A stretch of DNA of 64,000 nucleotides from an uncultured Acidimicrobiia bacterium (GCA_963836205.1 CAWIIV010000020.1:64001-128000); one strand, 5' to 3'; positions 36,368 to 41,772 are shown, counted from the stretch's first letter. A program made the numbers and translations. Notes: generated from the letters alone by a model not told the origin.

Positions 36368-38263
36368 GTGGATCCCGCGGCCGCCCTGAAGACGTTGGCG
36401 GGCGCCCTCGTCGGAGGCGGCGAGGTGCGGGCCGGGCAGGTGGCCATGGCGGAGGCGGTGGCCCGGGCGGTACGAGACGGGCGGCCACTGGTCGTGCGGG
36501 CGGGGACGGGAACGGGGAAGACGTGGGCCTACCTGGTCGGATCGCTGCTCGAGTCGGCGGGCAAGGTCGTGGTCGCCACCGCCACCAAGGCGCTCCAGGA
36601 CCAGCTGTCGGGCAAGGACCTTCCCGCGGTAGCCGCGGCCGGCGTGCGGCCCGGACTCACGTGGGCGGTCCTCAAGGGTCGGAGCAACTACCTGTGCCGG
36701 CAGGCGGCGGCGGAGGCGGCTCGCGACGACGACGCCCCCGCCCTCGGGCTCGGCGGCGGGAGCGGGGGCAGCGAGACCGGGCGGGCTGTGGGGCGGGAGG
36801 TGGCCCGGCTGCTGGCGTGGGCCGAGGACAGCGTGAGCGGCGACCGGGCCGAGCTGTCGTTCGAGCCGAGCCCGGCGGCGTGGTCGTCGGTGAGCGTGGG
36901 GTCCGACCAGTGCCCGGGGGCGAAGGAGTGCCCGAGCGGCGAGACCTGCTTCGCCGAGGCCGCCTACGAGCGGGCCCGGGAGGCCGACGTCGTCGTCGTC
37001 AACCTCCACCTGCTCGGGGCCCACGTCGCCTCCGGCGGCCACGTCCTCCCCGACCACGACGTCGTCATCCTCGACGAGGCCCACGAGGCACCCGACGTCA
37101 TGGCCGGCGCCCTGGGCGTCACCCTCACCCCGGGGCGGGTCACCGCCGTCGCCCGGCTGGCGTCGGCCACGAGCCTGTCCCGCCACCGGGACCGTCTCGA
37201 CGACGTCGTCGAACCGCTGGTGGGCACCCGGCTGGCCACCGGCGCCATGGGGAATGCCCAGGTGGGCGAGGTCCTGACCGACCTGGCCGAGGCGTTGCGG
37301 GCGGCGCGGGCGGCGCTCCGTGGCCTCCAGCCCGACCCCGCCCTCAAGGCCCGCCGGGAACGGGCGACCAAGGCGCTCGACTCCCTGGCGGCCGATGTCG
37401 ACACGGTCCTGCACGCAGGCGACGAGGACGTGACGTGGGTCGAGCAGGCGGGGTCGGGGTCGCAGCGGGCGCTGCGGGTGGCACCGATCGACGTCGGGGC
37501 GGAGCTGGCCCGGGTGGCGTGGTCGTCGACGACCGCCATCCTCACCTCGGCCACCGTCCCCATCGGCCTCGGCGCCCAGCTCGGGCTCGGCCGGGACTCC
37601 GTCGAGCTCGACGTGGGTAGTCCGTTCGACTACCGCCGGCTGGCCCTGCTCTACGTCCCCCGCCTCCCCGACCCCCGCCATCCCGACCACGAGGCGGCGG
37701 CCCACGCCGAGCTCGAATTCCTGATCGCTGCCGCCGGTGGCCGCACCCTGGCCCTGTTCACGTCGTGGCGGGCCATGCGGGCGGCCCACGGCGCCCTCGC
37801 CGACCGTCTGCCGTACCGGATCCTGGCCCAGGACGACCTTCCCAAGCCGGCGCTGATCGACGCCTTCCGGTCGGACGAGACCTCGTGCCTGTTCGCCACA
37901 ATGGGCTTCTGGCAGGGCGTCGACGTGCCCGGATCGGCCTGCTCCCTGGTGGTGATCGACCGGCTGCCGTTCCCCCGGCCCGACGACCCGGTGATCCAGG
38001 CCAGGCGGGAGCGGGCGGGACCCAACGCCTTCAACGCCGTCGACCTGCCCCACGTCGCCACCCGCCTGGCCCAGGGGGCGGGCCGCCTCATCCGGAGCAC
38101 GACCGACCGGGGGGTCGTGGCCGTCCTCGACCGCCGGTTGGCGGAGTCGTCGTACCGGCCGGTGATCCTGTCGGCCCTACCGCCGATGCGCCGGACCCGG
38201 GACCGGGCCGACGTCACCGCCTTCTTCGCCGCCCCCGCCGACGCCGCGCCGGACGACGGCTGA
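36368..38263 (+). CDS. DinG/YoaA-family ATP-dependent DNA helicase
   Basis: AGTGTGKT, KGRSNYLC, Fe-S Cys cluster, DEAH, FWQGVDVPG, QGAGRLIRS. Confidence 0.93.
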   Translation: MDPAAALKTLAGALVGGGEVRAGQVAMAEAVARAVRDGRPLVVRAGTGTGKTWAYLVGSLLESAGKVVVATATKALQDQLSGKDLPAVAAAGVRPGLTWAVLKGRSNYLCRQAAAEAARDDDAPALGLGGGSGGSETGRAVGREVARLLAWAEDSVSGDRAELSFEPSPAAWSSVSVGSDQCPGAKECPSGETCFAEAAYERAREADVVVVNLHLLGAHVASGGHVLPDHDVVILDEAHEAPDVMAGALGVTLTPGRVTAVARLASATSLSRHRDRLDDVVEPLVGTRLATGAMGNAQVGEVLTDLAEALRAARAALRGLQPDPALKARRERATKALDSLAADVDTVLHAGDEDVTWVEQAGSGSQRALRVAPIDVGAELARVAWSSTTAILTSATVPIGLGAQLGLGRDSVELDVGSPFDYRRLALLYVPRLPDPRHPDHEAAAHAELEFLIAAAGGRTLALFTSWRAMRAAHGALADRLPYRILAQDDLPKPALIDAFRSDETSCLFATMGFWQGVDVPGSACSLVVIDRLPFPRPDDPVIQARRERAGPNAFNAVDLPHVATRLAQGAGRLIRSTTDRGVVAVLDRRLAESSYRPVILSALPPMRRTRDRADVTAFFAAPADAAPDDG

Positions 38264-38267
38264 GAGC

Positions 38268-38516
38268 TCAGGCGCTGCGGCGGAGGGGTGCGTCCACGGC
38301 CTCGGGCATCGGCATCGGGCTGACATCGGCCACGCGGCCAACGTCGACCGCACCCACGTTGGCGACCTCGGCCGCCGACTGCGCCCGCCGCCGCCACCGC
38401 CGAGGGGCCGCCACCGACGCCGCCCGGCGGTGCCGATCGGCCTCGCGGCACAGGTCGGCCAGCCGGGCGTCGGACAGCCTCATCATCGTCTCCGTGTAGG
38501 CATCGAACCCGCTCAT
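38268..38516 (-). CDS. Small hypothetical protein
   Basis: MSGFDAYTETMMRLSDARLADLCREADRHRR. Confidence 0.5.
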   Translation of the reverse strand: MSGFDAYTETMMRLSDARLADLCREADRHRRAASVAAPRRWRRRAQSAAEVANVGAVDVGRVADVSPMPMPEAVDAPLRRSA

Positions 38517-38804
38517 GCGCCCATGATCGACGAGGCACCCGCGGGCGTGCTCCGAATTTCCGTGCGGGCAGGCGAGGGCGCCTGCCAGCCGAGTGAAACG
38601 CAGAGAGAAGGCCTCCCGACCAGGCCCGCTCGCCGGCAAGCACACGCGCTCGGTTCCTGTCCCGCTCTTCGGCATTGTTGCCTCAGATGCCTCTTCGTCC
38701 CGATGCTTCGCTCCTGGCTGCCCAAACTGCATCCCACACCTGGCGCCTCCGTGTAGGTACGGTTCGGGCGGCCCGGATTGCAGACTTCCTTGGCTGGCAT
38801 GGCC

Positions 38805-38828
38805 TAGACTAGTCGAACTAGTGTTCGT
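38805..38828 (+). promoter_or_regulatory. -10 element followed by a LexA box, upstream of the methyltransferase
   Basis: TAGACT (38805-38810) then TCGAAC-TAGT-GTTCGT (38813-38828); SD GGGAGG before GTG 38845. Confidence 0.75.
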
Positions 38829-38844
38829 ATGAGGGAGGTCGACG

Positions 38845-39861
38845 GTGGGCCTAGCGCCAACCCAGTGGGGACATCCGGCGGGATCCGACGTCGTGATCGG
38901 TCGATCGCTTGGGCTGGAACACCTGGCATCGCTTGTCCCAGCCTCGCTGTTGGAGTTCGTCAGGCGCGAGCCTCAGAAAGCCTTCCCTGCAATAGCGAAG
39001 GATCCGGACGCCTGCGCGCAACTGCGCATGGCAGTCGCATCGTTGGAAACGTGTCACCGCCTTCAAAATCTCGACAGCCGGCATCTCGCACTGCCCGACG
39101 GGAGTGTTGGCCTCGTGGTGACATCTCCGCCCTACTGGACGCTGAAGAAGTACAACGAGCACGAGGGCCAGCTCGGCGACGTCGAGGATTACGAGATGTT
39201 CCTCGACGAGCTCGACGAGGTGTGGCGCAGAGCGTACGACGCTCTCGTGCCAGGCGGACGGTTGGTAATCGTCGTCGGAGACGTCAGCGTTTCCAGGCGG
39301 GCGTTCGGCCGACACCTCGTTTTTCCTCTTCATGCAAGCATCCAGGAGCGATGCCGTCGTCTCGGGTTCGACAACCTCGCTCCGATCATCTGGTACAAGA
39401 TCGCCAATGCCCAGTATGAGGCGGGTGGTGGAGGCTTCTTCGGAAAACCATTCGAACCAAACGGCGTCATAAAGAACGATGTCGAGTACATCCTCTTCCA
39501 GAGAAAGCCGGGTGGATATCGGAAGCCGGATATCCCGACTAGGCTCCTCTCCTTGATTCCCGCTACTGACCATTCGGACTGGTTCCAGCAGGTCTGGAGA
39601 CTCAGCGGAGCTTCAACGTCTGAGCACCCAGCGCCGTTCCCGCTCACGCTCGCCGAGCGGCTGATCCGAATGTTCTCATTCGTCGGTGACACGGTGCTGG
39701 ATCCGTTCATAGGAACGGGCACGACGGCCGTAGCGGCCGCACGCTCCGGCCGGCACTCTATCGGATGTGAAGTCGATCCTCACTACTTCGCGAACTCGGT
39801 GCAGCGTGTCACCAAGGCATCCGGGGCGCCCGCTCAAACGGCATTCGATCTCTCGGCCTAG
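38845..39861 (+). CDS. Beta-class N4-cytosine/N6-adenine DNA methyltransferase
   Basis: VVTSPPY catalytic motif before HPAPFP and VLDPFIGTGTT SAM-binding motif. Confidence 0.93.
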   Translation: MGLAPTQWGHPAGSDVVIGRSLGLEHLASLVPASLLEFVRREPQKAFPAIAKDPDACAQLRMAVASLETCHRLQNLDSRHLALPDGSVGLVVTSPPYWTLKKYNEHEGQLGDVEDYEMFLDELDEVWRRAYDALVPGGRLVIVVGDVSVSRRAFGRHLVFPLHASIQERCRRLGFDNLAPIIWYKIANAQYEAGGGGFFGKPFEPNGVIKNDVEYILFQRKPGGYRKPDIPTRLLSLIPATDHSDWFQQVWRLSGASTSEHPAPFPLTLAERLIRMFSFVGDTVLDPFIGTGTTAVAAARSGRHSIGCEVDPHYFANSVQRVTKASGAPAQTAFDLSA

Positions 39862-39915
39862 GAGCTCACAGGGATGGCGGAATCGTCGAGGAGGACCGCG
39901 ACGTAACATCTGCCG

Positions 39916-40653
39916 GTGGCACTTCCCTTGAGCTTTCTCACTCACCTGCAAACCAAGGGCTACAACTCACGCAACAGCGTCCACTCGCGTGCCATCTGTG
40001 AAGCCATGGTGGCCGACCTCATGGCGACATGCGTGAGGATCCGAGAGGAGGCCATGGCGGGCCAACTCGTGTTCAAGATCGACCATATCTTGCCGGCAGC
40101 CGGTCTGGACGAATGGAAGACGGACCTCGCTATCGGACCTCCGTCTCCGGACTTCCTGCCCGATCCTGGTACTCCACCCGGGGCAATGCCGGAGGGAACA
40201 CCAATTTCCACCCGAATCGCCGTAGAGGCGAAATCTACGATGACCAAGCACAGCGGAGCCCGCAAGAACCGCAAGCGTGACCTCGAAGCCCACCACCAGC
40301 ATGTCCACGCGTACAGCGAGGCAACGATCGCCGCCAGCATCTCGCTCGTAAACGCTTCCGATACCTTTCAATCGAGTCTTCTCAGCGAGCCGACCCAGAT
40401 TACGACTAGTCGGATGACGGCATATGCCAAGGCCCAAGGCGTGGTCGATCAGGTGAAGATGGTCGCTTTCTCGCCGCACCAGGGTGCACAAGGAATTGAC
40501 GCAAAGTGCGCACTGGTTGTCGAGATGGACAACGTAAACCTTGCCTCGACCAAGTACGTCGAGAAGGCGCCGCCAGCACCGGCGTCGGGTGATCCTCTCC
40601 ATTGGGACTCATTCATCCATCGCGTGTGCGAGCGCTACTCTGAGCGCTTCTAG
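39916..40653 (+). CDS. Putative type II restriction endonuclease (PD-(D/E)xK)
   Basis: Directly downstream of the MTase; KTDLAIG..IAVEAKS motif; atypical lower-GC codon usage. Confidence 0.6.
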   Translation: MALPLSFLTHLQTKGYNSRNSVHSRAICEAMVADLMATCVRIREEAMAGQLVFKIDHILPAAGLDEWKTDLAIGPPSPDFLPDPGTPPGAMPEGTPISTRIAVEAKSTMTKHSGARKNRKRDLEAHHQHVHAYSEATIAASISLVNASDTFQSSLLSEPTQITTSRMTAYAKAQGVVDQVKMVAFSPHQGAQGIDAKCALVVEMDNVNLASTKYVEKAPPAPASGDPLHWDSFIHRVCERYSERF

Positions 40654-40674
40654 CTCGCATCACACGAGGAACGA

Positions 40675-40860
40675 TCACCCCCCGAAGTCTGTCTGGAGTC
40701 CTCTGAGTTCCTCGACGGGGCCGACGACGCACGAGTACCCAAACTCGTTGGTGAGAGTGCCCCACGCAGCATCGGCGATCCACTCTGGGTCGTCGTAGGC
40801 CACCTCTCCGGGCTCGACTGTCACCGTGATTGTTATGCGGAAGGTTCGAGGCGTCGCCAC
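40675..40860 (-). CDS. Small acidic hypothetical protein
   Basis: RTFRITITVTVEPGEVAYDDPEWIADAAWGTLTNEFGY. Confidence 0.55.
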   Translation of the reverse strand: MATPRTFRITITVTVEPGEVAYDDPEWIADAAWGTLTNEFGYSCVVGPVEELRGLQTDFGG

Positions 40861-41076
40861 CGGTACAGCTTCGCTCGAGGCTCGCGGCGAAGCGACAATC
40901 GCCGGGCCGTCCGGCCCGTCCGAGGTCAGTGATTGCGCGTGGGCTGGGCGGCGAATGGCCGGCCCGCGTTGGCACACCCACCGCTGGGCTCTTCCCGAAG
41001 CCCGGAGCTCCGTTCAGGTGGCGGCCGGCCAAAGGCGTTCTCACCGCGATCGCGCCGCGCCTCTAATCTGGCGGCC

Positions 41077-41772
41077 ATGGCGCTGACGCCGGTGCAGGTG
41101 CGCATCCTCGGGTGCCTCATGGAGAAGGAGCGCACCACTCCCGACAACTACCCGCTCACCCTCAACTCGTTGATGTCGGCCTGCAACCAGACCACCAACC
41201 GCCAGCCCGTGAGCAGGCTGGAGGAGGCCACCGTGAGCAACGCCCTGTTGAACCTGCGGGGGCTCAACCTGGTGCGGATCGTCTACAGCCGGTCGAACCG
41301 GGCCGACCGGTTCCGCCAGGTCCTCGACGAGGCCCTGGGGCTCGACGGGAGCGAGGCGGCCGTCGTCTGCCTGCTCATGCTGCGGGGGCCGCAGACGGCG
41401 AGCGAGCTGCGAGCCCGGAGCGAGCGGCTGCACCCCTTCGCCGACCAGGAGGAGGTCGATGACGCCCTCCGCCGCCTGGCCCGGCGGGACGAGCCCCTCG
41501 TGGCCCGGCTCGAGCGCCAGCCGGGGCAGAAGGAGAACCGGTGGGCGCAGCTGTTGGGGGGCGAGCTTCCGGGGGCGGAGGCACCCTCGCTCACGGCCGT
41601 GGCTCCGACCGCCGCCTCGGGACCGGACGGGCTCATGGCCGCGCCGGCGTCGTCGGTGCCGGTGCCCACCTCGGAGCGACTGGCGGCCCTGGAGGGGGCG
41701 ATGGAGGCACTCCGCGACGAGGTTGTCCGGCTCCGGGCCGAGCACGACGAACTGGTGCGGGAGCTCCATTGA
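41077..41772 (+). CDS. YceH/DUF480 family protein
   Basis: RILGCLMEKERTTPDNYPLTLNSL..CNQ..LMLRGPQT..PGQKENRWAQL. Confidence 0.93.
   Translation: MALTPVQVRILGCLMEKERTTPDNYPLTLNSLMSACNQTTNRQPVSRLEEATVSNALLNLRGLNLVRIVYSRSNRADRFRQVLDEALGLDGSEAAVVCLLMLRGPQTASELRARSERLHPFADQEEVDDALRRLARRDEPLVARLERQPGQKENRWAQLLGGELPGAEAPSLTAVAPTAASGPDGLMAAPASSVPVPTSERLAALEGAMEALRDEVVRLRAEHDELVRELH

Follow-up and report, generated by a model that had tools for sequence, protein, structure and literature searches.

The window analysed here, 64,000 nucleotides of DNA from an uncultured Acidimicrobiia bacterium, holds a DNA methyltransferase (MTase) gene with four closely spaced CTAG tetranucleotides at its promoter, and this raises the question whether the MTase controls its own transcription by methylating them. 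The initial annotation proposed that the enzyme recognises CTAG or ACTAGT and that its methylation feeds back on both RNA polymerase and LexA, as a methylation-gated SOS switch. The observations behind the proposal were accurate. A direct check of the sequence found CTAG at 38804, 38809, 38818 and 38851, two of the sites having the longer form ACTAGT (at 38808 and 38817). The first two sites overlap the -10 hexamer TAGACT, the third uses the last C of the CGAAC half-site of a LexA operator and the fourth lies inside codons 3-4 of the MTase gene. Also the by-eye list of CTAG in the window outside the surrounding gene islet (4510, 24081, 43643 and 56608) turned out to be exact. Our reading of the locus is a different one. 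With a probability of about 0.72 we consider that the islet carries a type II restriction-modification (R-M) pair wired into the host SOS regulon, and that the CTAG cluster would be incidental. The features concerned are given in Table 1.

Table 1. Features of the islet and of its MTase promoter (positions in the window)
Feature	Position	Strand	Basis and remarks
Inserted islet, about 2.5 kb, 62% GC	38560..41053		Ends approximate; between a DinG-like helicase gene plus a small ORF and a DUF480 gene
CTAG cluster	38804..38854		Two sites as ACTAGT (38808, 38817); peculiar to this copy, not conserved
Probable -10 element TAGACT of the MTase promoter	38805..38810	+	No clear -35; promoter activity inferred
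LexA operator CGAAC-TAGT-GTTCG	38814..38827		Perfect match to the host box, position, conservation
RBS GGGAGG	38833..38838	+	Sequence; 6 nt 5' of the GTG start
Beta-class amino-methyltransferase, 338 aa, TTHA0409-like	38845..39861	+	SPPY before DPFxGxG; PF01555
-10-like hexamer TAACAT	39904..39909	+	6 nt 5' of the nuclease GTG; possible leaderless, LexA-independent promoter, inferred
Putative type II restriction endonuclease, 245 aa, unnamed PD-(D/E)XK family	39916..40653	+	Invariant residues, fold, linkage
Small ORF, about 60 aa	40675..40857	-	Right end of the islet; no Pfam match

The assignment of the MTase to the beta class was confirmed: motif IV (SPPY) precedes motif I (DPFxGxG), and the protein matches PF01555 (E=6e-38) and the PADLOC profile MTase_II (E=5e-54). 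The closest solved structure is PDB 2ZIE (E=5e-104, residues 70-322) of TTHA0409 from Thermus thermophilus HB8 (PDB 2ZIE/2ZIF/2ZIG), which is called a putative methylase. TTHA0409 has the same order of beta-class motifs, whereas the window MTase is longer by about 50 residues at its N-terminus and its gene has a LexA box. The SPPY motif suggests N4-methylcytosine (m4C), which is probably the product also here; the PDB neighbours of the enzyme include both m4C and m6A kinds. Named close homologues come from Acidimicrobiales and other Actinomycetota, and over 100 homologues reach 70-81% identity. The protein is also the best match in the assembly (88.6% complete) to the pFZ1 enzyme (33.8%).

Box match, position and conservation support the MTase gene as a predicted member of the LexA (SOS) regulon. 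The operator described in the initial annotation is shared with known SOS genes, as CGAAC-N4-GTTCG also precedes lexA, recA, dinB, dnaE2 and ruvC in this genome, and it is kept in homologues. Without mismatch the box occurs 26 times in the genome, two of them before lexA, the host LexA being encoded at C14:245057. In the MTase promoter it begins 3 nt after the -10 element, and the call of this element agrees with the homologues: all six box-bearing close homologues have a TA-N3-T hexamer 0-4 nt 5' of the box, and in 6/6 a purine-rich equivalent of the RBS follows it. A generic sigma-70 and terminator scan of 38200-41100 found nothing. An arrangement with TAGACT as the -35 and TATGAG as the -10 element was dropped, because TATGAG is without the final T and is not conserved.

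In a quick tree of the MTases, with the pFZ1 row on a long branch, the window MTase falls in an 11-member clade (100% SH-aLRT). Among the ten closest homologues six have the LexA box in place, three have a PafBC-type element and one has neither. The -10-like hexamer, box and RBS stand in the same order and place in the six (L082, L002, L166, L175, L176 and L228), five of the boxes being perfect and one having one mismatch. At 72-80% protein identity the half-sites are kept, while their spacer and flanking bases vary freely. In L168, L229 and L230 the box is replaced by a 22-nt PafBC-type element, TGTC-AC/GG-N10-TA-N3-T. The 330 nt upstream of the MTase in 27 non-redundant actinobacterial loci contained the box in 6, the PafBC-type element in 12 (one of them, in L176, inside the gene) and either in 17; the genome background per search window was 0.028 and 0.023 for the two elements (together about 5%). 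Two of these loci, L173 (G215) and L175 (G426), are from unpublished genomes and give one count each. A further group, labelled 'other', was left aside because its truncated loci produced indexing artefacts. The excess of damage elements is a strong tendency and not a formal test, because the PafBC-type pattern was written after some of the 27 loci had been seen and because the loci are related.

The N10-TA-N3-T part of this pattern belongs to the PafBC consensus. TGTCAC-N10-(T/C)A-N3-T was found before recA in this genome and in 4/4 other genomes examined, and the genome carries two adjacent WYL genes. The comparison suggests that the PafBC site in Acidimicrobiia begins with TGTCAC rather than with TGTCGG, the beginning of the 22-nt motif given in the accessible text of PMC8682763. 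The recA promoter was seen to hold a LexA box together with a TGTCACAC-type element (G000:C6:437818 and 437864; L264-L267). A different inverted repeat, TTACA-N4-TGTAA (0-1 mismatch), was observed directly 5' of the MTase start in several homologues (L170, L171, L030, L034, L037, L086, L138, L146, L229 and L233). In G187 and G375 the repeat stands also before lexA and recA (L261, L262, L265 and L267); the recognition helix of LexA is altered in these two genomes, and a GAAC box was not found within one mismatch. In G852 and G895 the repeat is present at the MTase, yet lexA has canonical GAAC boxes. The repeat may be a variant form of the LexA box that some Acidimicrobiia use.

The partner gene is less easily named, as the nuclease matched nothing in Pfam, NCBIfam or PADLOC, and a sequence search of the PDB gave weak chemoreceptor matches only. 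Its residues D70, E104 and K106 are invariant in 51/51 aligned sequences. The structure model (pLDDT 94.5) had its best fold match in NgoMIV (Z 9.8, rmsd 3.5, 166 aligned), with further matches to NucC (Z 8.6) and BbvCI (Z 8.3), and Foldseek returned the same kinds of protein with a best E of only 0.005. Unnamed clusters were found in the ESM Atlas, together with the EcoRI (0.86) and XhoI (0.85) clusters as leads only. The nuclease profile did not match the XhoI and MjaI families (hhalign probability for XhoI 0.2-0.9%), and the fold lists, in which XhoI and MjaI structures do not figure, exclude nothing in this respect. The search with the nuclease gave 160 loci. An MTase match, in one case weak and distant, was present in 153 of them, and a contig end cuts most of the remaining seven. 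Based on gene linkage, the PD-(D/E)XK site and the fold, the islet was read as a putative type II R-M pair. MTase and nuclease are separate, linked genes in tandem, with both ORFs intact. The nuclease may have a separate leaderless promoter, because a -10-like hexamer 6 nt 5' of its GTG recurs in the window, in L082 (TAGCCT) and in L002 (CAGAAT), the last two read by eye.

The GC content of the islet is 0.619 in comparison to 0.76 and 0.71 in its flanks, whose genes were identified by Pfam. We take the stretch at about 38560-41053 to be acquired, because 37 bp separate the two flanks in the same-genus genome G105 (an empty site) and because a different insert of about 2.9 kb occupies the site in G401 (C27) and G405 (C146). 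The latter insert apparently encodes a regulator and a membrane protein. The islet itself was absent from the same-genus genomes searched, no match was found in the viral contigs searched, and none of its ORFs is a regulator gene.

We then considered how far the CTAG cluster departs from chance. The 64-kb window contains 12 CTAG vs 54 expected from dinucleotide shuffles; the further islet sites are at 39539, 39858, 40406 and 40650, of which 39858 and 40650 are the TAG stops of the two islet genes. In the 4.05-Mb genome, with 1022 CTAG, a cluster of four in 60 bp occurs once, here. Counted per 100-bp upstream window (n=1714, crudely called), 1588 had no CTAG, 119 had one, six had two, none had three and one, taken to be the MTase promoter, had four. 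The cluster exceeds a simple chance model, since it is unique in the genome and the Poisson estimate for one four-CTAG upstream window is about 0.003, a figure to be read with the caution that the word CTAG was chosen after the cluster was seen and that three of the sites overlap within 18 bp and could have arisen together. Density depends on composition as well, being 1.0-1.9/kb at 52-63% GC vs 0.14-0.25/kb at 68-75%; low-GC stretches of the genome are thus 4-10 times denser in CTAG, and the islet has 62% GC. The genome-wide depletion of CTAG (o/e 0.26) was considered as a sign of a CTAG system and dropped, because same-genus loci of genomes in which the MTase was not found are equally poor (0.18/kb vs 0.25/kb). 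A third ACTAGT was noticed at 40405, within a 10-bp palindrome (40403-40412) in the nuclease gene; it is not conserved in L002.

A search for CTAG clusters upstream of homologues, as suggested in the initial annotation, gave a negative result. None of the 27 actinobacterial loci had three or more CTAG in 330 nt; 17 had none, nine had one and one had two. The spacers of the six homologous boxes are ACTT, GTGC, ACAT, ACAC, GTAC and ACAC, and CTAG at the -10 occurs in one of the six, L082 only. Upstream of 102 family members CTAG was observed 75 times vs 30.6 expected (2.45-fold), the top palindrome tested, and its density before family MTases was 2.3-2.5 times that of other windows, whether upstream or downstream. 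The positions are scattered, and several fall on a stop codon or a C+TAGnnT hexamer. TTAG and ATAG are likewise raised upstream (1.9- and 1.5-fold), and CTAG is less avoided in R-M genes (0.84) than in flanking genes (0.45). The excess fits foreign, non-coding DNA; it appears only partly explained by composition, with a residue left.

The target of the MTase was judged mainly from its partner nucleases. At least four partner types occur with the MTase family: in the 17 non-self loci found with the MTase first, the partner belonged to a second unnamed nuclease family in nine, to the window's family in two and to the XhoI family in three, and none was called in three. Enzymes of the XhoI family (PF04555), such as XhoI and PaeR7I, cut CTCGAG. 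Members passing the Pfam cut-off directly adjoin the MTase family in L169, L231, L232 and L223, and no gamma-class MTase was found within 14 kb around any of the four (0/4). L223 came from the XhoI-first search, in which most other loci had the usual gamma-class NPPY enzyme; there the MTase stands between an XhoI-family gene and a gene of the window's nuclease family. The XhoI-partnered MTases are nested in the quick tree among those with the window's nuclease family. Their core identity to the window MTase is 66, 63, 64 and 53%, and the loop between motifs VII and VIII is in common. The pFZ1 enzyme, the only CTAG enzyme compared, which we take to be MthZI with the target CTAG, has 36% core identity and a 5-residue gap in this loop. 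A phmmer search for an MjaI-family nuclease over the locus ORFs, with the pFZ1 nuclease as query, returned the query itself only.

A target CTCGAG, or a close variant of it, is thus favoured to some degree, because the MTase is closer to the XhoI-partnered enzymes than to the pFZ1 enzyme and has no MjaI-family partner; a third site would be rather unlikely. The target claimed in the initial annotation, CTAG or ACTAGT, we regard as improbable: the partners are XhoI-family or unnamed, never MjaI-family, and ACTAGT is not enriched. The assignment of CTCGAG rests on MTase similarity of 53-66%, since the window's nuclease is not of the XhoI family, and specificities can differ at that level. CTCGAG is absent from the promoter and from either R-M gene, and the only one in the islet (40874) lies just upstream of the small ORF. 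Its avoidance in R-M genes was not significant by codon-shuffle (ratio 0.83, z -1.6), and palindrome avoidance in these genes, by Markov and codon-shuffle models, picked no target convincingly. An m4C MTase for CtcgaG, M.MspLW5III, is on record in the part of PMC4752239 that was available. In the literature outside subscription journals we found no stated specificity for TTHA0409 or for a homologue in phage Lalka27a, and no paper on the regulation or target of the family. In L257:6178-8699 (G459) a single MTase was observed with two different nucleases around it, one of the XhoI family and one of the window's nuclease family.

In our main reading, LexA bound to 38814-38827 would cover the probable start of transcription immediately behind the -10 and hold the MTase at basal level, and DNA damage would lift this repression and induce the MTase. 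Judged by the partner nucleases, the enzyme would most likely convert the first C of CTCGAG, or of a close variant, to N4-methylcytosine. The nuclease would probably be expressed from its own weak leaderless promoter and by read-through, and with its promoter being separate, damage would raise protective methylation most. The added methylation could re-mark sites left bare by repair synthesis, as a type II counterpart of restriction alleviation, which in the accessible text of PMC12707154 protects unmodified sites in type I systems. Alternatively, the purpose could be defence raised when damage signals phage activity. The CTAG cluster would be incidental to this wiring: one site is a common C+TAGnnT -10, two are at freely varying positions and one is in variable N-terminal codons, and all would lie in foreign DNA with weaker avoidance of CTAG. 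Against the incidental reading, the cluster really does stand out from the rest of the genome, and this is left to chance or local duplication.

Methylation of CTAG or ACTAGT at the -10 and operator, altering RNA polymerase and LexA binding, has in its favour the unique four-site cluster placed on the -10 and a half-site. The MTase, an SPPY beta-class enzyme, moreover has 34% identity to the MTase of pFZ1, which is paired with an MjaI-family nuclease, CTAG is 2.45-fold enriched upstream of the 102 homologues, and one near-identical copy (7/285 bases different) has no listed change at the four sites, few changes being expected anyway. Control by promoter methylation exists in CfrBI, AhdI and LlaDII according to the available part of PMC12707154, and CfrBI resembles the proposal in having a cognate site within the MTase promoter; the CfrBI genes are divergent with overlapping promoters (same source), whereas the islet genes are in tandem and their CTAG sites are unconserved and probably not cognate. 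What speaks against such a switch is the comparison with homologues: the six conserved boxes have variable spacers, none of which gives CTAG (0/6), no locus of 27 has three or more sites, ACTAGT is found once upstream of the 102 homologues vs 1.0 expected, and 55/102 have no CTAG in 450 nt. The parallel rise of TTAG and ATAG and the weaker avoidance of CTAG in R-M genes are as expected of foreign DNA, and the partners are XhoI-family or unnamed, never MjaI-family. A comparable case is the E. coli lexA operator, where a Dcm methylation site overlaps the operator and was long suspected to be regulatory. Methylation left lexA expression unchanged and LexA instead shields the site, as stated in the accessible text of Lewis et al. 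2021 (PMC9210283); the Dcm site is m5C and conserved, in contrast to the window's CTAG sites. Feedback by methylation is therefore unlikely, as the cluster is peculiar to one copy and is probably not the MTase's own target, and we give the switch very little credence. The same very low rating applies to a variant in which this strain recently evolved cognate sites and the MTase gene would fire only with LexA cleaved and the promoter unmethylated, as a two-input gate. If true, a methylation gate in which an R-M methyltransferase controls its own LexA operator would be without precedent in the literature searched.

The cluster could also be read independently of methylation, the ACTAGT-CGA-ACTAGT dyad being a recently gained site for a second protein, the MTase or a host regulator, that fine-tunes the promoter. 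Three CTAG in 18 bp do form a near-palindrome offset from the LexA box, in a cluster unique in the genome. The dyad is, however, missing from all six box-bearing homologues and does not recur in front of other SOS genes (of the 26 perfect boxes in the genome, one has CTAG within it), and the islet ORFs include no regulator gene; we hold this reading to be improbable. Equally improbable is that the LexA box was inherited and is irrelevant to R-M function, for example with a silent pair or a dead nuclease. This would agree with the islet being a recent insert absent from the same-genus genomes searched. Both ORFs are, however, intact with invariant catalytic residues, and the half-sites were kept while spacer and flanks diverged at 72-80% protein identity. 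More weight, still as a doubtful alternative, is given to a LexA-controlled pair whose MTase recognises a sequence that is neither CTCGAG nor CTAG, since an unnamed nuclease family would have its own specificity. The variety of at least four partner types, the lack of a significant match between the window's nuclease and the XhoI or MjaI families and the codon-shuffle test, which singled out no word convincingly, are in line with it; the nesting of XhoI-partnered MTases among those with the window's nuclease family, and the occurrence of both nuclease types around one MTase in L223, count against it.

R-M genes linked to the SOS response are already known. The portion of PMC5055667 available to us gives ciprofloxacin induction for cglIM (M-value 3.41) and cglIR (1.38) of C. 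glutamicum and places both genes in the LexA regulon. Main likenesses to the islet are an actinobacterial host, R-M genes of a LexA regulon and, in the CglI data of that portion, induction by a damaging drug that is stronger for the MTase than for the nuclease; CglIM is a cytosine-5 MTase, whereas the islet encodes a beta-class amino-MTase with an unnamed nuclease. The islet would add an unnamed type II family to the SOS-linked systems. XhoI/PaeR7I resemble it in that PF04555 nucleases partner the window's MTase family in four loci, which suggests the same target. They differ in that the window's nuclease is not PF04555 and that their usual MTase is a gamma-class NPPY enzyme and not a beta-class SPPY one. 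The pFZ1 system (MthZI/MjaI-type) shares a beta-class SPPY MTase (34% identity, E=6e-40 pairwise), in contrast to its motif VII-VIII loop, which is unlike that of the window MTase, and to its nuclease, which is convergent, MjaI-family by annotation and without a match to the window's.

The type II R-M family seen here is widespread and unnamed, and in actinobacteria its members usually appear to have a damage promoter, by either of two known routes. We give about even odds to the wider proposal that it has repeatedly re-wired itself to the damage regulator of its host (LexA, PafBC or the possible TTACA-N4-TGTAA box) in order to boost methylation during repair. Type II systems may in this way protect the chromosome during repair through MTase induction. 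For the TTHA0409 family, which has a solved structure and no stated specificity in the literature searched, CTCGAG becomes a candidate target.

Some minor observations concern related genes. Thermus phage Lalka27a (PQ109076.1, L227:2947-3792) encodes a member of the MTase family, 64% identical and annotated as DNMTa; no partner nuclease was detected for it, and it is possibly an anti-restriction enzyme. A second family of beta-class SPPY MTases, 35-40% identical, was observed in many related genomes (L177-L202; G000:C11:91879-92622), among them 7/7 same-genus genomes, and may be a conserved orphan MTase. About 10 of the 26 perfect LexA boxes precede related ORFs of 350-470 aa (in G000 at C4:8014, C5:12141, C6:64722, C11:147950, C17:131110, C20:92868, C22:67541, C23:59134 and others), which by their look we take to be DUF222/HNH-type mobile genes.
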